Source of the DNA: a virus | Length of the DNA stretch: 40,346 bases | Strand: one strand, 5' to 3' | UHGV virus genome: UHGV-0260710 | Part shown: positions 3,094-27,612 of the stretch, piece by piece | Layout of the letters: each line of letters begins with the position of its first letter | Numbering within the stretch: the stretch's first letter is position 1 | Position numbers and translations under genes: made by a program | The notes under the pieces: generated by a model | Databases searched by the model: none | What the model was told of the DNA's origin: nothing | The model's input: only the letters and a program-made list of their open reading frames with translations

Positions 3094-3659
3094 TAGTCCC
3101 TCCCGATGTCAGACATCATGTTGTAGCGACCAGTGTCCATCTCATACTCCATAACCTGCTGATAGAGTTCTGCTTCCTGCTCACGAAGGTATAGCTCTGA
3201 CTCTGGGCTACCGAAGAACTTAGCGTTGAACTCACGGCTAGCTTTAGTGACGATGTAGTCCCTGAAGACCACAGGCATCTCGGAGAATGGCTTCATCTCC
3301 ACAAGCTCTACCGTGATAGGGTCGGTGAAAGTGGTTGACTGAGTGGATAGGTCGTACAGGTATCCACCCATGTTGCTGTAGTAGCTGGTGGCCCCAGCAG
3401 TCATTACACGAAGGTATGATGGCAAGAATCGAATCCTATTGTCTTGGACATCAGGTGTCAGTACAGCAGCTTCGTTGATGTTAAAGTTCCAGCCTTTAGC
3501 TTGGACCTGACGATTGACACGATGTAGTATACGTTGAGCGTTAGAGACGTCAGCGTTCCCCTCGTCAAGCTGTAGGACTGCTGGTTCACCGATAGCAGCT
3601 AACATATCGTTGATGGCGTCTAAGTCATCGTTAGCATTCAGTGGAATGTATTGAGCCAT
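3093..3659 (-). CDS. gp11: Tail tubular protein A (gp11)
   Basis: 188 aa; alignable to T7 gp11 (e.g. INDMLAAIGEP.., RGW.FNI.E, FRDYIVTKASREFN); downstream of Tphi. Confidence 0.9.
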   Translation of the reverse strand: MAQYIPLNANDDLDAINDMLAAIGEPAVLQLDEGNADVSNAQRILHRVNRQVQAKGWNFNINEAAVLTPDVQDNRIRFLPSYLRVMTAGATSYYSNMGGYLYDLSTQSTTFTDPITVELVEMKPFSEMPVVFRDYIVTKASREFNAKFFGSPESELYLREQEAELYQQVMEYEMDTGRYNMMSDIGRD

Positions 3660-4897: not shown

Positions 4898-4999
4898 ATG
4901 ATAATTCTCCTATTCAATTGAAAGATAAAGTTTATTACTTACTGTATGCCCAATCCGTATGGACTGAAGTAATAGGGAAACCTTGAGTCTATCTCTTGG

Positions 5000-5022
5000 T
5001 CTCCCTATAGTGATAGTTTAGT
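5000..5022 (-). promoter_or_regulatory. Phage RNAP promoter (phi10-like), ACTAAACTATCACTATAGGGAGACC, +1 ~5005
   Basis: Best match to family consensus including GGGAGA initiation region; immediately upstream of capsid gene. Confidence 0.8.
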
Positions 5023-6028: not shown

Positions 6029-7592
6029 CTTGAGCCATGTCCTCACCAGCTCCTTGACCTACAGCAGCGCCCATGTTAGCACCAGCAGCAGACGCACCGT
6101 TGACCACAGCTCCTTGAGCGGATTGTTCAGCCATGCGCTGAATCTTCTCGTCCTGAGTCAGCAGTAGACCGGCAGTGTCAATGCCTAAGGCATTCAGTAG
6201 TCGCAGCTTCAGGGTCGGTAAGTTAATGTCTGGGTCCTGTTGCAGAGGTTGTAGCCCGGTCATCATGTTGACTGCCTGAGTAAGCTTCTCTAAGTCTTGG
6301 CCACGACCTAACGCTTCCAGACCAGTGGAGACCGTAGGCTCTACCGCCTCTTTAGGAAGGTCAGGAATCATGCCAGCAGACTGAAGCTGGTTCATCAGCA
6401 CACGGACGATAGGTAACTGAAGCTCTTGTGACTGTACTGAGTACACGCCACCTAAGGTAGCCTCCAGTTCGCCAGCAACATAACGAATCTCTTCAGCAGT
6501 GACACGCTCTGCATTACGCTGAACAGCACTATTAAGAAGGAAGGCCCAGCCTAAACGTTGCTCGATAGCGTCAGCCACCGACTTAGCAATCGTAAAGTCC
6601 TGACCTTTCGTAAGTTGCAGGAAGTTGATGTCCTCAACGCGACCAGCCACGAACTCACCTGTAGCCGCCTTGTTCAGACGTCGAGGTTGCGTGATGCCGT
6701 TCGGGTTAACGAGGCCCACCACCTTGGAGGCTACCTTAGCCATTTTGGTGATAGCTTCTGTAATCGTCTCCAGCGAGTTCAGGTCTCCCAGATACTCCTC
6801 GCAGTAAGAACGACCGTAGTCTTCACCATCCAGTCGAACCATTCGTACCGGGATGTATGGACATGCAGTCAGCGGGTAGGAACCATCGGTCCCTGTTACC
6901 TCAATGCCCTCCACTTCCTCGTAGCGTAGATACTCGTCGTCCTGACGGTAGATGTGCGTGTACACTTCCAGCTCGGTGTCAGGCTCATAGTCGTCTGCAT
7001 TGAGTTGAGACTTCACGTCTTCCGGTAGAGCACTAAACGCTACCTTGTCTAGAGTCACAATCTGTAAGATGTTACCGAACGCATCACGTTGAACAACGTA
7101 AGACACTAATCGGTACATCCGCATCGGACTATAGGTTCCTTGTTCTGGAGGAGGGATGTAGAGCAGACAGTTACCGGAGACGATAAGCTGCTTCAAAGCC
7201 TCGAACAATGGGACACGGAAACTGTTAGTCTCCATGTAGGCCATCAACACACGCTCGACCATAGCCAGCCCTTCGTCAACACGGGCAGCAGCCTCTGAGT
7301 CCTGACTCAAGGTCTTGGCCTCATATTCGGAGACTGTCAGTCGCATCCACGGTGACTGAGGGAATAACGCCAACATCAGCTTTGCAGCCAAGTTGTTCAA
7401 GCAGCGAGCACCTACAGCTTGCCACGGAGTGGTATACTCAGTAGACGAGTTGTCGGACTCCTTAGGAAACAGTGACGGGATAGTGACAGCAGCACAGTTC
7501 TGAGCGCGTGTCTCATATGGCTGTCTACCGTTCTTCAGTCGGTCATAGACCGCTTTGGCTCCTTCAGCAGCGAACCCTTCACGTTCAGCCAT
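6024..7592 (-). CDS. gp8: Portal (head-tail connector) protein gp8
   Basis: 522 aa; N-terminus aligns closely to T7 gp8 (GAK.VY.RLKN.R.PYETRAQNCA..TIPSLFPK.SDN.ST.Y.TPWQAVGAR.LNNLA.KLMLALFP). Confidence 0.95.
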   Translation of the reverse strand: MAEREGFAAEGAKAVYDRLKNGRQPYETRAQNCAAVTIPSLFPKESDNSSTEYTTPWQAVGARCLNNLAAKLMLALFPQSPWMRLTVSEYEAKTLSQDSEAAARVDEGLAMVERVLMAYMETNSFRVPLFEALKQLIVSGNCLLYIPPPEQGTYSPMRMYRLVSYVVQRDAFGNILQIVTLDKVAFSALPEDVKSQLNADDYEPDTELEVYTHIYRQDDEYLRYEEVEGIEVTGTDGSYPLTACPYIPVRMVRLDGEDYGRSYCEEYLGDLNSLETITEAITKMAKVASKVVGLVNPNGITQPRRLNKAATGEFVAGRVEDINFLQLTKGQDFTIAKSVADAIEQRLGWAFLLNSAVQRNAERVTAEEIRYVAGELEATLGGVYSVQSQELQLPIVRVLMNQLQSAGMIPDLPKEAVEPTVSTGLEALGRGQDLEKLTQAVNMMTGLQPLQQDPDINLPTLKLRLLNALGIDTAGLLLTQDEKIQRMAEQSAQGAVVNGASAAGANMGAAVGQGAGEDMAQA

Positions 7593-8765: not shown

Positions 8766-8826
8766 CTTGAATCTCCTCTTTAAGTTAAGACTAAAGTCTA
8801 TCTTATAGTCATATCTTAGGTCCTAA

Positions 8827-15406: not shown

Positions 15407-15429
15407 CATCCCTAAGGTGATAGTTTAGG
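15407..15429 (-). promoter_or_regulatory. Variant phage promoter (TAAACTATCACCTTAGGGATGG; two mismatches at -4/-3)
   Basis: Conserved upstream half of the promoter family; upstream of the HNH 3.8-like gene. Confidence 0.45.
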
Positions 15430-15663: not shown

Positions 15664-16122
15664 TTAACCGTGGTCGGAAGTGACCAGCTCATTGGTAGAC
15701 AGCCAGCGTTGCAAGTCGAAACTTGGACACGCCTTAGGCGCTACGTCATGGTGTGCTTTTATTTCTGCCTGAGGGTACATGGCCTTCAGGTCGGCCAGCT
15801 TGTTGCGCAGGGAGTTCATCTGGGCCGGAGTGAAGTTAGCTTCAAACTTGCCCTTAGCGTCAATTCCACCTACAAGGCAGACGCCTACGGACTTGGAGTT
15901 CCAGTCCTTAACGTGTGACCCTACGACATTGACCGGACGACCCTCTTCCACAGTACCATCGCGCTTGATGATAAAGTGGTAGCCTACGTCCAGCCAGCCT
16001 TGCTGCTTGTGCCACATACGGATGGTCTCTACCCCGATATCCATCTCTGGCTTGGTAGCCGAACAGTGAACGAAGATAGCGTCAGTCCGGGACCGTGGGT
16101 TGAATTGCACCTTACTTACCAT
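15664..16122 (-). CDS. gp3.5: Lysozyme / N-acetylmuramoyl-L-alanine amidase (gp3.5)
   Basis: 152 aa; near-identical blocks to T7 lysozyme (VQF..R..TDAIFVHCSATKP, GWLDVGYHFIIKRDGTVE.GR, GVCLVGGID.KGKF.ANFTPAQM.SLR, HH.VAPKACPSFDL.RW...NELVTSD.G). Confidence 0.95.
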   Translation of the reverse strand: MVSKVQFNPRSRTDAIFVHCSATKPEMDIGVETIRMWHKQQGWLDVGYHFIIKRDGTVEEGRPVNVVGSHVKDWNSKSVGVCLVGGIDAKGKFEANFTPAQMNSLRNKLADLKAMYPQAEIKAHHDVAPKACPSFDLQRWLSTNELVTSDHG

Positions 16123-17792: not shown

Positions 17793-17815
17793 CTGTCCTA
17801 CAGTGATAGTTTAGG
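17793..17815 (-). promoter_or_regulatory. Variant phage promoter (TAAACTATCACTGTAGGACAGA; -3 G)
   Basis: Family motif overlapping the gene 2 3' end, upstream of SSB gene (T7 has phi2.5). Confidence 0.55.
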
Positions 17816-18032
17816 TCTCAGGACGGATTCGTCCTACCACAAACCCAGCGTCCTCATACTCTTGGGACTTTAGGGTAGCCTCTTCAAGAGACTTTGCGTA
17901 CACCGGAACCTCGAAGGACTGAATGCGTCCCTCAAGCTCCACGATGTATTTTCTTTCTTCAAGTCTCATAGCCCTTTCTCCTTCCACATATGGTACATGG
18001 ACAGGTAGTCCACATCCCCGGTTGAGACCCAC
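17811..18032 (-). CDS. gp2: Host RNA polymerase inhibitor gp2-like (true start possibly the internal Met at 17969)
   Basis: C-terminal half aligns to T7 gp2 (SFEVP.YA..L.EA......Y...GF.V.R.RP). Confidence 0.7.
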
Positions 18033-18699: not shown

Positions 18700-18738
18700 A
18701 CAAAGCAAAGAAACCCAGCAGTCATAAGACCACTGGGT
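18700..18738 (-). terminator. Candidate early (TE-like) intrinsic terminator
   Basis: Minus strand ACCCAGTGGTC-TTAT-GACTGCTGGGT (10-bp stem with two G-U pairs) followed by TTTCTTTGCTTTG; placed right after the HNH stop, as T7 TE follows the early region. Confidence 0.5.
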
Positions 18739-18741
18739 TGT

Positions 18742-20443: not shown

Positions 20444-20623
20444 TTATGCTCCTACGAAGTATTTCTCTTGGTTGATCATAGAGTCTTTACCTTCAGCATT
20501 ACGGAAAGCTCCTTTGACACCACCGCCACGCTTAGTCTTGTTCAGCTTGCGGCCCTTCGGGATGTAGCCTTCAGTCTGCTGACGTTCACGGATGCGCTCG
20601 AAGTTGATAGTGTTCTGATACAT
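20444..20623 (-). CDS. gp1.1: gp1.1-like small basic protein (59 aa)
   Basis: Hand translation MYQNTINFERIRERQQTEGYIPKGRKLNKTKRGGGVKGAFRNAEGKDSMINQEKYFVGA; KGRKLNKTKR matches T7 gp1.1; below the ORF-table length cutoff. Confidence 0.6.
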   Translation of the reverse strand: MYQNTINFERIRERQQTEGYIPKGRKLNKTKRGGGVKGAFRNAEGKDSMINQEKYFVGA

Positions 20624-20693
20624 GGTGTAGCTCCTGGTTGAGTGAGTTAGGGTTAATCATGAAGGCCACGACTTTGAGTCATGACCTTGAGTC

Positions 20694-20716
20694 TAATCCT
20701 ATAGTGATAGTTTAGG
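20694..20716 (-). promoter_or_regulatory. Phage RNAP promoter (TAAACTATCACTATAGGATTAG)
   Basis: Family motif upstream of gene 1.1, as T7 phi1.1A/B. Confidence 0.7.
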
Positions 20717-20790
20717 CTAACCTCTCCTGCGTTGGATTAAAGTGAATACTGCGAGTGCTACCAACCACAGGGCCAGTAACTGTAGGTATG

Positions 20791-20991
20791 TCATTTGGTT
20801 GCCGCCTCTTTAAGGACTTGCTCGTGCGTCTGCTCCACCATCTTAACCAGCAACTTGAATGGGACGTTAAGCTGCTTTGACATCTCGGTAGGGATGACAG
20901 TGGTCTTCACCAGACCCTTGCCGTTGTGTTCTGTTACGGTCACGATTTGGGTCCCACCCTTAACGCCAGTCTGCTTGTGTGCAAATTCCAT
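20791..20991 (-). CDS. Hypothetical protein (66 aa) after RNAP
   Basis: ORF in the conserved orientation; no recognised motif. Confidence 0.45.
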   Translation of the reverse strand: MEFAHKQTGVKGGTQIVTVTEHNGKGLVKTTVIPTEMSKQLNVPFKLLVKMVEQTHEQVLKEAATK

Positions 20992-21001
20992 AACTCTCTC
21001 C

Positions 21002-21232
21002 TTATCTAATTGTAGGGAATGACGGATACTGAGTGCGCTCGTCTTTCATCCACGCGTTAAGAACTTCATCAATCGAAGCTATAAGGTTGTACTCGTTAGG
21101 TTGAATCCACCCAGTCACACCCGACTGTAATCTGTCTCGGAGAATGATTAAATCCTTATAAGTCAGCTCTACATGGCAACGTCCCGACCCATCGTTGAAT
21201 GCCTTGTTGTGTGCTACAAGTTTCATTGACAT
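21002..21232 (-). CDS. Hypothetical protein (76 aa) after RNAP
   Basis: ORF starts 15 nt after RNAP stop; no recognised motif. Confidence 0.45.
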   Translation of the reverse strand: MSMKLVAHNKAFNDGSGRCHVELTYKDLIILRDRLQSGVTGWIQPNEYNLIASIDEVLNAWMKDERTQYPSFPTIR

Positions 21233-21247
21233 ATACTTCTCCTGCTG

Positions 21248-23929
21248 TTAAGCGAATGCAAAGTCTGAAGACAGGATGTCTTCGATATTCAGTTTGCCTT
21301 TCTTCGGAAGCTCAGGCAGCTTGTCGCGCTGGCTCTCGTGAAGCTGGTATTCGAACTGCTCGTAGAAGTCAAGCAGCACGTCGTTGTCGCGGTATGTCTC
21401 GACCATCGTCTCACGGACACCACGGAACAGATACTCAGCGTCAGCCGGGATGGTCCCGAAGCTATCATGAATCACTGCGAACGACATCACGCCATATTTG
21501 CGGTGAGTGTGGACTACAGTCTTGCGTAGGTGGCTACCATCTTGTGAGTGGACGAAGTTCGGGCTAATGCCTGACTCCTGCTTGTGCTTGTCCAACTCTT
21601 TCTTCGTGCCTTTATTGACGGTAGGCTGAAGGTTGAATGACCCTAAGAACATCAGGTTCAGACGAGTGGTATCCTTCTTGCGGTATTCCTGCCAGACCGG
21701 GAAACCATCAGGTGTTACCCAGTGTACAGGAAGGCAAGGCTTCAGGATTTCCCCGGTCTTTTTGTCCTTCACTTCAGCAGCCAGCAGCTTGGCAGCACCC
21801 TGAAGCCACTTCATCGCGTCAACAGCAGCAACTACGGTCACACTCACAGCTTCCCAAATCATCTTAGCCATGAAGCGAGACGCTTGGCTTGGCTCGGTGA
21901 ACATAGCGCCAGACCCTGAGTCAATCGCTGGAATCACGATGTCCTCGTACACTTGGTCTGCGAAGCCGTACTCTTTCGACCCATAGGCCAGAGTCATGAC
22001 TGAACGCTTAGTGACCTTTCGTGACATACCGTAGGTCAGCCACTGGCGGGCCAGCTCTCGTGTCCCCAGCTTGATACGTTCGGTAATCTCACCCGTTTTC
22101 TTGTCCTCGTGAGTTACCATCTCGTTGTCCGTGCCGTTAACCAGCAGGACTTTAAGCTCTTCCTCAATGCGGTCAGACACTATGCGGTAGATGTCTTGTA
22201 CCTTACCGGAAGGCGTCAGGTTTACTGCATGTCCACCGATGTGGTCACGAAGCATCGCGCTAAAGTGCTGAATCCCAGAGCAGGACCCATCGAATGCTAT
22301 CGGCAGCGAGCAGGAGTAAGACAATCCGTGATGCATTACGCCAGCATACTCGAAGCAGAACGCTAGGAAGCAGAACGGAGAGTCTAACTTACCCCACCAC
22401 TCAATGCTGTCCATCGGTGCCTTAGCGGTAGCCATGATGTTGTCGTGGTTATCTTCCACCCACTTGATGCGCTCCTCGAAGGTTACTTTATCAATACCCG
22501 CACAGTTTGCACCGTGGACCTTCAGCCATTTGAAACCATCAGCACCAATAGGCTTACCGACTGCCAGAGTCAGGAGACCCTTTTGCATGTCGTTACCCTG
22601 AGGGTTGAACATCGGAACAGCGTAGACACGACCGCGCCAGTCCATATTGTACGGGAACCAGATGGCCTTGAACTGAGAGAACTTGTTCGCTTGGTTAACG
22701 ATAAAGCTCAGTGACAATCTACGCGACTGCCGAGCCTTCTCTCGGCGGTAGATACCAGCAGCAGCCTTCTTCCATGCCTTAAGTTCCTCTTCAGTCTCAC
22801 CCGCATAGTCTTCAGGCTTCAGTGGCTCCATCTGAGGGATGTCATCAATAGGCGTGTTGTTCAACTTCTCGACCATGTTCACCACGTCCAGAACCTTCTT
22901 GTTCACTTTCCAAGGTGTATTCTGGATGATGTTAACAGCGTCATATACTTCAGGCATGTACACGTCTTCGTAACGTGCCACCGCAGACTTAGACCCTAAG
23001 CGAATCAGTGGTAGTGGTCTGCGTCCTTTGGCCCAGTACCCACCTCCTACGACACCAGTCCACGGCTTAGGTGGAACGACGCAAGGCTGGTAGACTGGAG
23101 CGATACCCGCAAGGCTGAAGCCTCGTTGCGCCATCTTCTTGACCCAGAAGTCTGACAGGTGGACCATCTCGACGTCAGCCGCTGCATTGCCAGCACCGTA
23201 ACGCTTAAGCTCGACCAGTTGTGTTGACTGGATGATAATCTCAAGCATCTTGATTCCAACGTGGACAGCCTCGGTTGGACTCCAAGTCCCCCACGCATCT
23301 TCCAGTTGGCCTTGCTCAAGCATGGATGCCTCAACCGCTTGCATGTAGGCTTTCTTGTAGGATGCCCCAGCTCGCTTGTTCAGGTTCTCGGCTATCGCCT
23401 TCTTGAAGTGCTCCTTCTCCTTGTCACGGATGCGACCGAAGCGGATTTCGTCCTCAAGTGTGCGACCTATCGCGGATGCCATCGGTGTAATCGGTATCCC
23501 TTCAGGCTTGACCAGCTTGGAGAGTATGACCTTCAGTATGATTACCGCAGCAGACTCGCAAGAGATACGCAGAGAGCGGTCCTTGACGGCCTTCTCTTCA
23601 GTGCTCAACATGGTGAACGCTACGCTAGGACGAGAGGTTGACAGCTTCCCGTCTGGGCCTTCATGCCACTCCCTGACGGCTTGCGCAATCTTAGGGACCA
23701 GAGTCTGCATCAAAGGCTTGGCGACCTGATTGTCTGCCAGTTCCCCGCGCTCAGTCTGTCGCTCAAGGTTCTTGATGAAACGTCGCTCGCCTTCAGTGTA
23801 TGCCTCATGCTCAAGCTGAAGCTGTTTGACTGCAAGGTCTTGCCCGTAATGGTCAGCCAGCAGGTTAAACGGCTCAATAGCGTTAGACACATCAGAGAAG
23901 TCGTGTTTGTCAATAGAGATGACGCTCAT
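21248..23929 (-). CDS. gp1: Single-subunit DNA-directed RNA polymerase (T7 gene 1 family)
   Basis: 893 aa; extensive collinear identity with T7 RNAP (DHYG, FQPCVVPPKPWTG..GGGYWA.GRRPL, RYEDVYMPEVY, WFPYNMDWRGRVYAV.MFNPQGNDM.KGLLTLA.GKPIG, SPFCFLAFCFEYAGV.HHGLSY.CSLP.AFDGSCSGIQHFSAMLRD, VTKRSVMTLAYGSKE.GF, HKQESGI.PNFVHSQDGSHLRKTVV, IHDSFGTIPADA, ends SDFAFA). Confidence 0.98.
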   Translation of the reverse strand: MSVISIDKHDFSDVSNAIEPFNLLADHYGQDLAVKQLQLEHEAYTEGERRFIKNLERQTERGELADNQVAKPLMQTLVPKIAQAVREWHEGPDGKLSTSRPSVAFTMLSTEEKAVKDRSLRISCESAAVIILKVILSKLVKPEGIPITPMASAIGRTLEDEIRFGRIRDKEKEHFKKAIAENLNKRAGASYKKAYMQAVEASMLEQGQLEDAWGTWSPTEAVHVGIKMLEIIIQSTQLVELKRYGAGNAAADVEMVHLSDFWVKKMAQRGFSLAGIAPVYQPCVVPPKPWTGVVGGGYWAKGRRPLPLIRLGSKSAVARYEDVYMPEVYDAVNIIQNTPWKVNKKVLDVVNMVEKLNNTPIDDIPQMEPLKPEDYAGETEEELKAWKKAAAGIYRREKARQSRRLSLSFIVNQANKFSQFKAIWFPYNMDWRGRVYAVPMFNPQGNDMQKGLLTLAVGKPIGADGFKWLKVHGANCAGIDKVTFEERIKWVEDNHDNIMATAKAPMDSIEWWGKLDSPFCFLAFCFEYAGVMHHGLSYSCSLPIAFDGSCSGIQHFSAMLRDHIGGHAVNLTPSGKVQDIYRIVSDRIEEELKVLLVNGTDNEMVTHEDKKTGEITERIKLGTRELARQWLTYGMSRKVTKRSVMTLAYGSKEYGFADQVYEDIVIPAIDSGSGAMFTEPSQASRFMAKMIWEAVSVTVVAAVDAMKWLQGAAKLLAAEVKDKKTGEILKPCLPVHWVTPDGFPVWQEYRKKDTTRLNLMFLGSFNLQPTVNKGTKKELDKHKQESGISPNFVHSQDGSHLRKTVVHTHRKYGVMSFAVIHDSFGTIPADAEYLFRGVRETMVETYRDNDVLLDFYEQFEYQLHESQRDKLPELPKKGKLNIEDILSSDFAFA

Positions 23930-23997
23930 ACTTAAAGTCCTTGTTATTAGTCTTTCACTTAAAGTCTCTTTGGTCTTTCACTTGGAGTCTTAGACCT

Positions 23998-24020
23998 TGA
24001 GTCCTATAGTGATAGTTAAG
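23998..24020 (-). promoter_or_regulatory. Phage RNAP promoter directly upstream of the RNAP gene (TTAACTATCACTATAGGACTCA; +1 ~24003, 73-nt leader)
   Basis: Family motif between the last small early ORF and the RNAP ATG; leader contains an 11-bp direct repeat AAGTGAAAGAC x2 and an AAGGA RBS. Confidence 0.6.
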
Positions 24021-24026
24021 TCAGAA

Positions 24027-24353
24027 TCACTTGCATATCAATGGGTTAGCGTGAAGATGACTGAAGTCACCATGAGTCGTGTGCTTGACGGTTGACCGTT
24101 GGTCTATCGCCTTCCAGCCTGAGACCAGAAGTTTACCATCTTCGGTGATTGGTTGCCCACCATACGCCAGACACATCAGTTCGGACTTATGGCCCTCAGC
24201 CCGCATACGTCGCTGTAAGAACATGTCACGCTCCTTCTGTTGACGTATGGTGTGGCTTGATGTTCCGTGACGATACCCGGTAACCAGTAGGCTTAACATT
24301 TGCATGTCTGCGTCCATAGAGTGTACCAGATTAATCCCGTATGACTTGTTCAT
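24027..24353 (-). CDS. Hypothetical early protein (108 aa)
   Basis: ORF coupled by ATGA overlap to the upstream 65-aa ORF; occupies the region where T7 has 0.5-0.7; no kinase motifs. Confidence 0.5.
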   Translation of the reverse strand: MNKSYGINLVHSMDADMQMLSLLVTGYRHGTSSHTIRQQKERDMFLQRRMRAEGHKSELMCLAYGGQPITEDGKLLVSGWKAIDQRSTVKHTTHGDFSHLHANPLICK

Positions 24354-24550
24354 TACATTTTGCTCCCAAGTGTTGCTATATCCCAGACGTTCGCTAAGTT
24401 GCGCATGAATCGTCCATTAGGTTGACGTACAGTCCAGCGACCCAGACGTACATAGTTGAATTTGCAGACTTTACGCGCTTTATTTATGTCCCTCATCAGC
24501 ACGTAGGCGATAAGTCCATAGCCTATGACTATCAATAGTGCAAGACTCAT
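24353..24550 (-). CDS. Hypothetical early membrane protein (65 aa, N-terminal TM helix)
   Basis: MSLALLIVIGYGLIAYVLM hydrophobic N-terminus then basic region; ATGA-coupled on both sides. Confidence 0.5.
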   Translation of the reverse strand: MSLALLIVIGYGLIAYVLMRDINKARKVCKFNYVRLGRWTVRQPNGRFMRNLANVWDIATLGSKM

Positions 24551-24636
24551 AATGATTTCCGTTTAATACAGTCGTATATCCCATAGACTATCATCCAGAT
24601 AACTGGCGCTAGGCAGACCCAATATCCCACACTCAT
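24547..24636 (-). CDS. Small hydrophobic peptide (29 aa, MSVGYWVCLAPVIWMIVYGIYDCIKRKSL)
   Basis: AGGAG RBS upstream of ATG at 24634-24636; stop overlaps next start (ATGA); below ORF-table cutoff. Confidence 0.3.
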   Translation of the reverse strand: MSVGYWVCLAPVIWMIVYGIYDCIKRKSL

Positions 24637-24706
24637 AGTTAACTCCTATTAATGCAAGTGGTAATCTTTGAGGCCACCTATCAGTCGATGACCTCTCGTC
24701 TATCAC

Positions 24707-24832
24707 TCAGTACCCACCTGTCAGCGTTATGGTCAGGCTATGGTGATTCGCCACGTAGCAAGCCCCGCGCTTCATCATCTCGTAGCATCCATCGTAGAAC
24801 GCCTGTTCACTGCTATAAGTTATCTGGTACAT
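24707..24832 (-). CDS. Small hypothetical early ORF (41 aa)
   Basis: ATG 7 nt after the stop of the upstream 66-aa ORF; hand translation MYQITYSSEQAFYDGCYEMMKRGACYVANHHSLTITLTGGY. Confidence 0.3.
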   Translation of the reverse strand: MYQITYSSEQAFYDGCYEMMKRGACYVANHHSLTITLTGGY

Positions 24833-24838
24833 TGTTGC

Positions 24839-25039
24839 TTACCCTTGGAATCCTACAGTGTTGGGCCATAGCGTAACGGTTTTACGCTTGGAGGTGATAA
24901 GGTCGGTAAATGATATCCGATATGCTGTGCCCTCAGGTGCTAGTATGTTGCCCACATAGCTCTTGGTAGTTATGCGTATTGGACCATCGCCTACCAGATA
25001 TACGGACTTAAGTCTATCAATTATATCGTTGCGTTTCAT
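24839..25039 (-). CDS. Hypothetical early protein (66 aa)
   Basis: ORF whose ATG overlaps the stop of the upstream 53-aa ORF (ATGA). Confidence 0.45.
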   Translation of the reverse strand: MKRNDIIDRLKSVYLVGDGPIRITTKSYVGNILAPEGTAYRISFTDLITSKRKTVTLWPNTVGFQG

Positions 25040-25197
25040 TGTTGGTTATCCTCAGCGTGCAAGCTGTCGTGTATGCGCTTGCGGCCCTCGTAGACCGCCT
25101 TCAGGTGACGTATAGCCGCATCGTGGTTTAACTGCCCGGTCTTGACCATAATCCGGGCGTTGGTGACGTGGTGCTGGCATAGACCGTAAGTTACCAT
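25036..25197 (-). CDS. Small hypothetical early ORF (53 aa), translationally coupled to Ocr
   Basis: ATG shares the A of the Ocr TGA stop (TGATG); hand translation [53 protein letters not shown]. Confidence 0.35.
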   Translation of the reverse strand: MVTYGLCQHHVTNARIMVKTGQLNHDAAIRHLKAVYEGRKRIHDSLHAEDNQQ

Positions 25198-25709
25198 CAC
25201 TCGCAGTCATCCTCAGCAGACGCAGGGTCGAACACTACGTTATCGTTGATGTCCTCGACCTTCAGGTGGCGACCTATCGCATAGTGATCTTTGGCACATG
25301 CAGTAGCGACATCAAGTGATACAGCTTGCTCAACGAATAGGCCTGTTTTAGCGTCTACTACCCAGTATTCTCCCTCCTCGTAGCAGCGCTCTTCAGGCTC
25401 GAACCAGACCACATCAGAGCTATTAGACACATCGTTATACAGTGCCTCATAAATGCGAGCTTGTAGGATGCGCGTTACGTCCTTGGTATCAGGCATCAGC
25501 CCAGAGTCTTCGAACTCATGGTCAATACCATCAGCAGCCATCACCGTGAAAATCTCGTGGTAATAGTGCGGAACCATATTGTCTACGACTTCATGTAGCG
25601 CATCGTAATAATCATCGCCTTCAGCTATTTCGTCGTACTGAATGCGCTCGTTAAATGCTTCAACGGTTGCAGCCAGCAGCTCATAGTATGCGTTAGCGTT
25701 ACGTTCCAT
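25197..25709 (-). CDS. ocr: Ocr-like anti-restriction protein (gene 0.3) with C-terminal extension
   Basis: 170 aa; core [36 protein letters not shown] matches T7 Ocr (117 aa); about 55 extra C-terminal residues. Confidence 0.85.
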
Positions 25710-25924
25710 AATTATATCCTCTCAAAGTTGTTTGTGTATGTTAGTGACTATCAGTCAGGACCCTGAGCCGCTCAAGTCAAGCCCGTCTCGCGGTAGACTC
25801 AAGGTCCTGTAGTTAATCACTATCGGCGCACATTAAGAGTTTATCCAGATTGTTAAAGAGCATTCCCTTCAGTCAGAGGACTTCAGGTAGACCATTTCAG
25901 TGTTGGTCGTCACCGTTGTGTCGA

Positions 25925-25962
25925 TGTGGTACAGCTTACATCTTATCGTCACTACTTGTCAA
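25925..25962 (-). promoter_or_regulatory. Candidate host sigma70 early promoter (A2/A3-like): TTGACA-18nt-TAAGCT
   Basis: -35 TTGACA at 25957-25962; flanking sequence resembles T7 A2/A3 (AAGTAGACAGCCTGATAAGTC..CGAAAAACAGG upstream; GTACCACAT...CCAACACTGAAA downstream), from memory. Confidence 0.4.
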
Positions 25963-26067
25963 CTGCTTTCTGTCATCTGCCTGTTTTTCGTATGACTTAT
26001 CAGGCTGTCTACTTAACCGGGATGACCCGGCGTCTTCACTATCCGGTTATTGCCGTGTCGTGTTGAC

Positions 26068-26103
26068 GGAAGCTATTAAGCCATAGTCTAGACCTATAGT
26101 CAA
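26068..26103 (-). promoter_or_regulatory. Candidate host sigma70 early promoter (A1-like): AT-rich UP region, TTGACT-17nt-CTTAAT
   Basis: -35 TTGACT at 26098-26103 with 17-bp spacer; first promoter-like element downstream of the end-repeat arrays. Confidence 0.4.
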
Positions 26104-26224
26104 TAGGTAATTTGAAATAATATTGATTGAGCTATCGTCGGCCCCATGGTGTAAGAGGATATAGTCTTTGACTAACATGTCTTAGACTTTAAGTCTATAT
26201 CCTTGTGTCTATTAACCGTTGGTC

Positions 26225-26480
26225 TCTGACTGTAGGTGTTGGTGTCTTATGGTTGAGACTGTAGGTTGTTAGACTGTAGGTTGTTAGAACTGTGGTTGTG
26301 ACTTATGGTTAGTGAGACTGTAGGCTGTAGGCTGATGGTTGTGACTTAGGGTCTGATACAGATAGAGACTCAGAGGCAGACCCATAGTCCCAACCTATCG
26401 TCCTTCCCTAAGCCATAGCCACAACCTATCGTTGACCTAACGTCTTGACCATCGGTCCAACCTTATGATAGACTGGGGGT
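26225..26480. repeat. Arrays of short degenerate repeats characteristic of T7-group genome ends
   Basis: 26225-26355 reiterates (G)ACTGTAGG(T/C)TGT / CTTATGG / CTTAGGG units (CCTACAG-type on minus strand); 26380-26475 carries CCATAG / CCTATCG / CCTAAG-type units in the opposite orientation; non-coding. Confidence 0.6.
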
Positions 26481-27117
26481 AGGGCCTTTGGTCTGGACTG
26501 AAAGAGGGCCTATGGGGAGACTTGAGGTTCTTGAACTGTGAGATGTGGTCTCAAACTTTTGGTCCAAAACTCATCGAAGACTGTAGGACACAGCCACTGT
26601 AGGTCAAGGACCGTAGGTCAGGCGACACTAGGATAGACCAATAAGTAGGATGACCCTAAGTGAGCTTCTCTTAAGGTGTTACCTAAAGTCCTTGACTACA
26701 GTAGCTAAGGTCAGTAGAGTAGCGTCAGCTATGAACTGACCTTAGGTCTTCCGCTCATGAATCGTTACCATGATTGCATTAATTGCACTGAGAGACCAGA
26801 GAGCATACGAGAGTCTCGACCCACCCGACCCACTGACTTCCAGCAGTAACGCCAGAAGCAAGTAGAACAGCAGCAAGAAACCTGTATGTAGCTCGATTGG
26901 TCGCCAGAGCTTTAAGTACAGCTTTGGTCTTTGCCATATGCTACATACCTCCTGTATCTATGGTCGGTGACTATCTGTATTGGAGGGATTATGATTAATA
27001 TCACCCTCCTTCCATCGGTGCAAGCCTTAGGTAAGAACTCGGAGTCTGCCTCCTAAGGTCTTGCATAAAGTCTGCATATGTATATTCACTACAGTAATAC
27101 TATAAGTAACCGGGGGT

Positions 27118-27140
27118 CTTCCCTATAGTGATAGTTAAGT
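27118..27140 (-). promoter_or_regulatory. Phage RNAP promoter near the right genome end (phiOR-like), TTAACTATCACTATAGGGAAGACC
   Basis: Family motif downstream of the last gene, reading toward the genome end. Confidence 0.65.
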
Positions 27141-27263
27141 CCAAACTCCTTGTAAAACAGTAGGTTAGACTGGTAGTCACGCATGGTAACTACCTGAGTT
27201 TTTATTCACATATAGCGACATAGTATTCACCATGAAGCTCCCTTCCCTTGGTATTCCTCCAGT

Positions 27264-27612
27264 CTATTGCATCCTGTAAGCTATCGGTAGCATATCTATA
27301 GGTAACACCGTCCTTCGTCTGGCTAGTCTTCCACTTACCTGAACACCTCTTAATACTGTGGGCCAGCACCTCATGTCCTGACTCTTTCCTCTTCTTACAG
27401 CATTAACCGAGTTCTGAGACTTTGTGGCAAGCCGTAGGTTTTCTCTACGATTGTTCAACTTGTTCCTGTCAATATGGTCAACAACCATTCCATCAGGCAC
27501 TGGTCCGTAGAACATCTCGTACACTAAGATGTGCACAAAATGCTCATGGACCTTGTAGTATTTACCGACCAGACCCGACTATACAGCCGGGAACGCTATC
27601 GTCGTACTTCAT
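27264..27612 (-). pseudogene. HNH endonuclease paralog split by a frameshift (remnant or requires recoding)
   Basis: GTG-initiated 90-aa ORF (27264-27536) holds the HNH core HILVYEMFYGPVPDGMVVDHIDRNKLNNRRENLRLA; 15 codons in another frame upstream (MKYDDSVPGCIVGSGR, with TAGGAGGATAA-ATG RBS) plus the open HNH frame (..GKYYKV..) align to the N-termini of the intact paralogs (..[13 protein letters not shown]..); coordinates +/-1. Confidence 0.45.

Follow-up and report, generated by a model that had tools for sequence, protein, structure and literature searches.

In the textbook scheme of T7 infection, host RNA polymerase makes the phage RNA polymerase (RNAP), and this enzyme transcribes everything else. 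T7 (NC_001604) possesses a rightward phage promoter upstream of gene 1, the RNAP gene. This promoter, phiOL (nt 405), lies about 2.8 kb off and before the host promoters, and the slot beside gene 1 is taken by the minor E. coli promoter C (nt 3113).

A phage promoter next to the RNAP gene itself has been recorded in several relatives. Citrobacter phage CR8 (HG818824.1) carries a 'predicted promoter' (3356-3378) which is cognate to its polymerase, lies in the gap between gp0.38 and gene 1 and is directed into the RNAP gene. In Pseudomonas phage gh-1 (NC_004665), the consensus promoter phi1 (939-961) is situated about 100 nt before the RNAP gene (1058) and adjoined by a putative RNase III site, R1. 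For Pseudomonas phage LUZ100, a phage-specific promoter (phi1) directly upstream of the RNAP gene was described together with an explicit positive-feedback hypothesis (PMC10134795). On the basis of an ONT-cappable-seq transcriptome, it was suggested that a MarR-like repressor, together with terminator read-through, gates the LUZ100 loop (PMC10134795).

The closest described case is phage EcoDS1 (EU734172.1), in which a phage promoter 'phi' (2244-2266), orthologous to the site examined here, is annotated directly before gene 1. The same wiring exists in engineered form, since Dubendorff and Studier reportedly constructed in 1991 a synthetic T7 'autogene', in which T7 gene 1 is placed under a T7 promoter. 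Later uses of autogenes are found in two papers (PMC6395690, PMC1500874). Finally, a Kayfunavirus paper from 2026 mentions a CTWAACTATCACTATAGG repeat at the 3' end of SPD_007 and leaves it without interpretation (PMC13298934); by its number, SPD_007 directly precedes the RNAP gene, SPD_008.

Results

Genomic context of gene 1

The DNA analysed here, called the window, is the whole viral sequence UHGV-0260710 (40,346 nt). It is a K1F-like podovirus (Kayfunavirus, Studiervirinae). A 1-kb query around the site that we call phi1 retrieved 221 phage records, nearly all of them Kayfunavirus, with the best at ~95% identity. The genome is circularly permuted in the window, and its genes are encoded by the minus strand. 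Its RNAP aligns end to end with T7 RNAP at 64% identity, and its specificity loop reads RLNLMFLGSFNLQ. Positions 23930-24026 are exactly the 97-nt gap separating the TGA of a gp0.38-like ORF (24029-24027) from the RNAP ATG (23929). In an alignment of 16 relatives, the AAGGA Shine-Dalgarno sequence and the gene 1 ATG are invariant. A Pfam search with the gp0.38-like ORF (24027..24353) gave no match. Coordinates of all features are collected in Table 1.

Table 1. Features of the window around phi1 and gene 1; all positions are those of the window.
Feature	Position	Strand	Basis or remark
Host sigma-70 early promoter	26067..26103	-	Homologue of the first host RNAP promoter annotated in EcoDS1
gp0.38-like early ORF, 108 aa	24027..24353	-	ORF list; homologues named gp0.38 in EcoDS1, PE3-1 and K1F
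Phage K1F-type RNAP promoter phi1, -17..+6, ACTTAACTATCACTATAGGACTC	23999..24021	-	PWM 31.3 bits; relatives
Predicted transcription start, +1 G	24004	-	Same register as T7-type promoters (TATA, followed by GG) and the ten other sites of the window
phi1 transcript leader, 75 nt, +1 to gene 1 ATG	23930..24004	-	Read from sequence
Long imperfect hairpin, 64 nt	23952..24015	-	Forms only in read-through (host-promoter) RNA; function hypothetical
Imperfect direct repeat, 23-nt period, two ~21-nt units, 86% identity	23947..23990	-	Repeat search
Shine-Dalgarno AAGGA	23938..23942	-	8 nt before gene 1 ATG
Gene 1, single-subunit RNAP, 893 aa	21248..23929	-	Pfam RNA_pol 2.5e-106 and RPOL_N
Next phage promoter 3' of gene 1, +1 = 20699	20694..20716	-	PWM 34.2 bits; EcoDS1 homologue 'phi' 6034-6056
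Early terminator TE	18712..18739	-	12-bp stem and T-rich tail; terminator scan; homologous to TE annotated in EcoDS1
gp2 homologue	17811..18032		Protein identified with Pfam
gp3.5-like amidase/lysozyme	15664..16122	-	Pfam Amidase_2 1.5e-16

EcoDS1 469-505 with its flanks maps by BLAST to window 26133-26037 at 96.9% identity, and the sigma-70 promoter found there is the predicted source of the first gene 1 transcripts. TE ends the unit transcribed by host RNAP, and gene 1 is inside this early unit. A candidate equivalent of phiOL was rejected: the GACTATAGG sequence at 26094 belongs to a TTGACT-type host promoter, whose homologue is annotated in EcoDS1, and no phiOL equivalent was found in the window.

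The contig carries a single copy of the terminal repeat, at about 26366-26543 as mapped from EcoDS1. An array of short repeats with GACTGTAGG (window 26235-26602, motifs on the plus strand) overlaps and flanks this copy and probably sits in the concatemer-junction region. CR8 annotates (acctacagtcaac)3 repeats, which are of the same kind.

phi1 as a member of a promoter family

Eleven sites in the window, all of them on the minus (coding) strand, make up a family with the core CTWAACTATCACTATAGG. Their +1 positions are 33527, 27123, 24004 (phi1), 20699, 18648, 17798, 8832, 6011, 5005 and 457; the eleventh copy, at 15412, is weaker. Scored with a position weight matrix (PWM) trained on nine other window promoters, phi1 being left out, phi1 reaches 31.3 bits. 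The nine others score 33.2-37.9 bits, the phi4 equivalent 25.1 bits and the best site outside the family 16.7 bits. phi1 is identical to phiOR (27123) over -17..+2 and to phi13 (457) over -16..+2. Its CACTATA melting region and the subsequent +1 GG occupy 24011..24003.

The earlier note on this DNA had reported a copy of the phage promoter motif oriented into the RNAP gene, 73 nt before its start codon. The copy is indeed there and oriented so. Its 22-mer TTAACTATCACTATAGGACTCA occurs once in the window, at 24019..23998 (-), and was matched in none of 100 shuffles with up to 3 mismatches allowed. The distance has to be corrected, however, as the leader counted from +1 (G24004) measures 75 nt. 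The stop codon of the gp0.38-like ORF lies 5 nt before promoter position -17, and phi1 is thus placed at a gene boundary. The start GGACTC in place of GGGAGA, from which that note had concluded that promoter strength is uncertain, was read correctly. GGAC also starts the equivalents of phi1.6 (18648) and phi2.5 (17798), whereas late-type promoters start with GGGA. For this reason, phi1 looks like a middle-class promoter and not like a defective one.

A promoter of the phiOL type would stand between the terminal repeat and the host early promoters. phi1 does not, since it lies past the host promoters (about 26100) and at a distance of about 2.5 kb from the left end (about 26543). The PWM revealed no second phage promoter in the window from the left end to 24004, nor any above 17 bits on the minus strand between 24100 and 27088. 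A sigma-70 promoter in the gap, as might be expected from the PE3-1 label (see below) and from T7 promoter C, was also considered and rejected, no sigma-70-like site being present on the minus strand in 23930-24100.

Other members of the family showed some peculiarities. The phi4 equivalent (15407-15429 (-), +1 = 15412, 25.1 bits) has the core CACCTTAGG in place of CACTATAGG, and a strong 5' stem-loop (z about -2.6 to -3.0) comes after it; its EcoDS1 homologue is annotated 'phi'. Very stable 5' stem-loops (z = -3.8 to -5.7) follow the promoters at 20699 and 5005 (phi10), in 20640-20699 and 4949-5005 (-), respectively. The words GACTCAAGGTC recur 3' of both the 24004 and the 20699 promoter. A degenerate promoter-like copy (16.7 bits) is found at 8803 (-), 29 nt 3' of phi6.5 (+1 8832), and a direct repeat of GACTATAGG (window position 448 (-)) comes immediately after the phi13 promoter (+1 457).

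Distribution among T7 relatives

A region of 111 nt, comprising the 97-nt gap and its flanks, was found in 219 phage records, in 105 of them at 99% identity or more. K1F, PE3-1 and about 200 other Kayfunavirus records possess the same site between the same neighbours, gp0.38 and gene 1, with 98-100% identity to the 111-nt query. Over its 23 bp, the promoter does not differ between the window, K1F, EcoDS1 and PE3-1. Its annotation varies: in PE3-1 (KJ748011.1) the site (2874-2896) is mislabelled 'host RNAP promoter', and the K1F records leave it unannotated. Ro45lw (MK301532.1) annotates six promoters and omits the one at gene 1 (about 2400-2420, with T>A at -2), so that public annotation is inconsistent.

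We then surveyed 79 IMG/VR loci found by RNAP alignment. The comparison of related genomes that the earlier note had proposed came out in favour of the site: a cognate promoter stands near gene 1 in all 20 Kayfunavirus loci and in CR8. The distance from +1 to the ATG is 75-81 nt in Kayfunavirus and about 88 nt to the annotated gene 1 start of CR8. None of about 56 assessable T7-, T3-, Berlin- and K11-like loci has a cognate promoter within 300 nt before gene 1; the nearest site on that side lies 630 nt upstream, in a T3-like contig. Two T3-type promoters of consensus or near-consensus sequence precede gene 1 in this contig (L056), at distances of 630 and 1582 nt and apparently in the early region, and transcription of gene 1 by phage polymerase may thus not be confined to the K1F group.

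In most assessable T7-, 13a-, K11- and Berlin-like loci, gene 1 is preceded at 1.3-3.4 kb by a phiOL-type site. phiOL is annotated in T7 (405), 13a and K11 upstream of the whole early region. No phiOL was detected in Kayfunavirus genomes starting at the true left end. With a simple pattern, no SP6-type promoter was detected in the 3.4 kb upstream of the SP6 RNAP gene. The earlier contrast with T7, whose gene 1 was said to be transcribed only by host polymerase, was overstated in view of phiOL; it is the position of the promoter that differs. Since T7-, T3- and K11-like phages do without a promoter at gene 1, the benefit of direct feedback is not universal.

Co-variation of phi1 with polymerase specificity

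Promoter consensus differs among the relatives, and the copy before gene 1 differs with it. Phages GW1 and 02_vB_Eclo_IJM use the consensus TAAACCCTCACTATAGG, present at 10 and 7 sites, respectively, and the copy before gene 1, at a distance of 75 nt, has changed in the same way to GATTAAACCCTCACTATAGGACTC. A third consensus, AAGGAAGGTACACTATAGG, is used by CR8 (Caroctavirus, 79% RNAP identity), and one copy of it lies in the gp0.38-gene 1 gap. The specificity bases are ACTAT in the window, CCCT in GW1 and GGTA in CR8. On the side of the enzyme, the -12..-7 element ACTATC goes with the loop RLNLMFLGSFNLQ of the window RNAP and ACCCTC with RLDLMFLGTFRLQ of GW1. At the equivalents of T7 N748 and R756, GW1-type RNAP has D/R and the window RNAP N/N, a difference which fits the promoter change at -10/-9. 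The K1F specificity loop is known to recognise the K1F-type -12..-7 element in vivo (PMC3458549).

The co-variation of phi1 with three polymerase specificities is a natural control, indicating that the sequence is selected as a promoter. By its 31.3 bits, its conservation and its co-variation in GW1 and CR8, phi1 is strongly supported as a cognate phage promoter aimed at gene 1, and this comparative evidence argues strongly for its predicted activity. We also looked for a link to the gp0.7 kinase and rejected it, as the kinase is present in GW1 and IME278 and not in the window, and the promoter is present in all three.

In a sub-clade formed by IME278, Ro45lw, EP1 and five IMG/VR loci, the site is found 81 nt upstream of gene 1 with a single change, T>A at -2. 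This change is restricted to the gene 1 promoter and absent from the other promoters of the IME278, Ro45lw and EP1 sub-clade genomes. Taking the GGACTC start (as against GGGA) together with this change, phi1 may be deliberately weak. The sub-clade members (L007, L008, L009, L021-L023, L029 and L031) have ACTATCACTAAAGG, whose A at -2 is also found in T3 promoters, at no promoter other than that of gene 1, about 81 nt upstream. Their leader is remodelled, and CTTTAGTGAT is an exact inverted repeat of ATCACTAAAG.

Close relatives are 97-100% identical to the window in the gap, 81-92% in gp0.38 and 86-98% in gene 1, compared over the segments 23930-24026, 24030-24353 and 22730-23929, respectively. 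One locus (L018) shows 81% identity in gp0.38, 100% in the gap and 97% in gene 1, and another (L030) 100% in the gap and 86-90% in gene 1. Such steps of identity across phi1 suggest that recombination has left mosaic joints in or close to this conserved promoter-leader segment.

The leader, its repeat and a hairpin

The tandem 11-bp repeat described in the earlier note exists in two copies of AAGTGAAAGAC, at 23983..23973 and 23960..23950 (-), 23 nt apart start to start. These exact 11-nt stretches turned out to be the cores of a longer, imperfect duplication with a 23-nt period (86% identity), of which a third, degenerate copy is also present.

The phi1 leader taken from +1 is not unusually structured (z = 0.68; in a second estimate, z = -1.4), and neither is its 181-nt context as a whole (z = -0.26). 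Only a hairpin of 64-69 nt which includes promoter bases stands out. In the window it extends over 24015..23952 with a minimum free energy of -17.4 kcal/mol (z = -2.4, and z = -4.0 with mononucleotide shuffles). Both repeat copies take part: AGACC in copy 1 is paired to GGUCU, and AGUGA in copy 2 to UCACU, the promoter positions -8..-4. Among the 11 promoters of the window, phi1 is the only one whose bases serve as an arm of a strong hairpin. The lineages of GW1, IME278 and CR8 can form analogous hairpins (z = -2.2 to -2.4). For the IME278 clade, the 5' arm takes up promoter positions -9..+1, and with A in place of T at -2 the 10-bp helix AUCACUAAAG/CUUUAGUGAU is perfect.

Across 16 distinct sequences the pairing is kept in 96.5% of cells, with compensatory changes in 0 of 16 pairs. 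A search of 23000-27300 for Rfam families in the leader and early region (E <= 1) gave no match. Conservation of the leader extends well beyond the promoter, and promoter function alone thus does not explain the constraint.

Discussion

A proposed self-amplifying switch

We consider it likely that phi1 functions as a middle-class (class II-like) promoter, is recognised by the K1F-type RNAP of this phage and, being placed before the RNAP gene, feeds back on it. According to this model, host RNAP would start at the left-end sigma-70 promoters (around 26100) and transcribe the early region, gene 1 included, as far as TE (18739-18712). The first phage RNAP molecules would then bind ACTTAACTATCACTATAGG at 24021-24003 and initiate at G24004, giving an mRNA with the 75-nt leader, an intact ribosome-binding site and gene 1. 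As phage RNAP would ignore TE, the transcript would run on into the middle genes, and gene 1 would thereby be both an early and a middle gene. The RNAP would amplify its own synthesis and continue to do so after gp2 has silenced the host enzyme. Later the loop would be damped, presumably by the gp3.5 lysozyme. T7 lysozyme binds T7 RNAP, and by this analogy the gp3.5-like protein is a likely brake.

A pattern scan of the minus strand over 20500-27600, which covers the early genes, phi1 and the path through gene 1, gave no terminator-like site. Given this and the intact Shine-Dalgarno sequence and ATG, an active phi1 must yield gene 1 mRNA and hence positive feedback. Family membership, conservation and co-variation with specificity were observed directly, whereas initiation at 24004, the size of the feedback and the lysozyme brake are inferred. 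How much feedback phi1 would add is uncertain, since phage RNAP starting at phiOR might already transcribe gene 1 by crossing the concatemer junction. In the searchable literature we found no transcript 5' ends, in vitro data or experimental study for phi1 in the K1F group.

Alternative roles of the site

A real promoter might also be kept for another job, as a replacement of the missing phiOL, with extra gene 1 mRNA as a by-product. T7 promoters double as replication origins, phi1.1A/B forming the primary one and phiOL a secondary one. Candidate jobs are replication priming or a secondary origin, DNA entry pulled by the faster phage RNAP, and expression of genes 1.1-1.3 after gp2 has shut off host RNAP. 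Distribution speaks for such a role: Kayfunavirus loci with a true left end lack phiOL, most T7-, 13a-, K11- and Berlin-like loci have it 1.3-3.4 kb upstream and nothing beside gene 1, and in the window no second phage promoter is available between the left end and 24004. An origin or entry function would not, however, need the slot before gene 1 to be preserved with its 75-81 nt spacing, as it has been, through three specificity changes and a remodelled leader. For DNA entry, moreover, phi1 would bring no gain over the 20699 promoter, because gene 1 must already be inside the cell. Transcripts from phi1 must include gene 1 whatever role was selected, and we regard this explanation as unlikely. 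A chance or decaying copy of the motif, devoid of function, is effectively refuted. The non-consensus bases at +3..+6 are all that could be said for it, against 31.3 bits, 0 matches in 100 shuffles and presence in all 21 related loci, where the copy switches with specificity.

The conserved element could also act chiefly at the RNA level, as an RNase III-type processing hairpin or translation leader within the early transcript made by host RNAP, with the promoter-like sequence merely tolerated. T7 has an RNase III site of this kind, R1, just before gene 1, and gh-1 has its annotated R1 beside phi1. The 64-nt read-through hairpin, the sole case among 11 promoters, its analogues in GW1, IME278 and CR8, the perfect helix created by -2 T>A in IME278 and a leader better conserved in its entirety than the flanking genes all point in this direction. 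Nevertheless, the bases which switch with specificity are not part of the conserved stem: positions -9/-10 read AT in the window and CC in GW1, and CR8 differs in its upstream half. They follow the polymerase, and promoter function is the only explanation for this. Neither compensatory pairs (0/16) nor an Rfam family lend support. As promoter and RNA roles are not exclusive, the RNA signal as sole explanation is very improbable.

Both roles may coexist. It is conceivable, though we would put it forward only tentatively, that the gap is of dual use: as DNA it would be the promoter for phage RNAP, and in host-made read-through RNA it would form an R1-like RNase III or translation-control hairpin. 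An R1-like RNase III site overlapping phi1 is a reasonable, if speculative, hypothesis. If it is true, host-made gene 1 mRNA carries the hairpin and phage-made mRNA lacks it, so that the two would be processed or translated differently. This would also explain why the leader is conserved above its neighbouring genes and why -2 T>A coincides with the perfect 10-bp helix.

Comparison with known systems

Feedback through a promoter at gene 1, which we prefer as the reading of phi1, is not new, contrary to what the earlier note implied. The same site is annotated in EcoDS1 and its counterpart in CR8, the arrangement is annotated in gh-1, and feedback is discussed for LUZ100; phi1 is real but has precedents. 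In Kayfunavirus, Caroctavirus and, independently, in gh-1 and LUZ100, the RNAP gene appears to be wired to its own promoter as a self-amplifying switch. Two aspects keep their value, the clade-specific exchange of phiOL for a promoter adjacent to gene 1 and the possibility that a DNA promoter and an RNA hairpin overlap here. The self-amplifying wiring could be of use for models of infection timing, for understanding why K1F-type phages lack phiOL, and for self-amplifying orthogonal circuits based on K1F RNAP.

Compared with EcoDS1, K1F and PE3-1, the window shows essentially no difference and represents another isolate of the same kind. CR8 has the same arrangement and differs in its specificity (AAGGAAGGTACACTATAGG), its leader of about 88 nt, its GGGG start and the rest of its leader, with other hairpins. 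The gene order of gh-1 begins with the RNAP gene, which makes its phi1 the left-end promoter as well; moreover, the gh-1 consensus TAAAAACCCTCACTGTGGCTGCA is unrelated, and R1 lies upstream of the promoter without overlapping it. LUZ100 is a distant T7 relative with temperate features, and its promoter comes from a transcriptome study, whereas the site in the window is predicted from sequence. Relative to T7 the layout is reversed, as Kayfunavirus has no phiOL and has a phage promoter in the slot which T7 gives to promoter C. The T7 autogene shares the predicted logic of the window: an RNAP gene stands under its cognate promoter, and a seed of enzyme leads to self-amplifying expression. Unlike the phage, however, the autogene is an engineered plasmid system that is stable only under repression, whereas the phage version would run only once, in a doomed cell, with a natural seed in the host promoters and a natural brake in the lysozyme.
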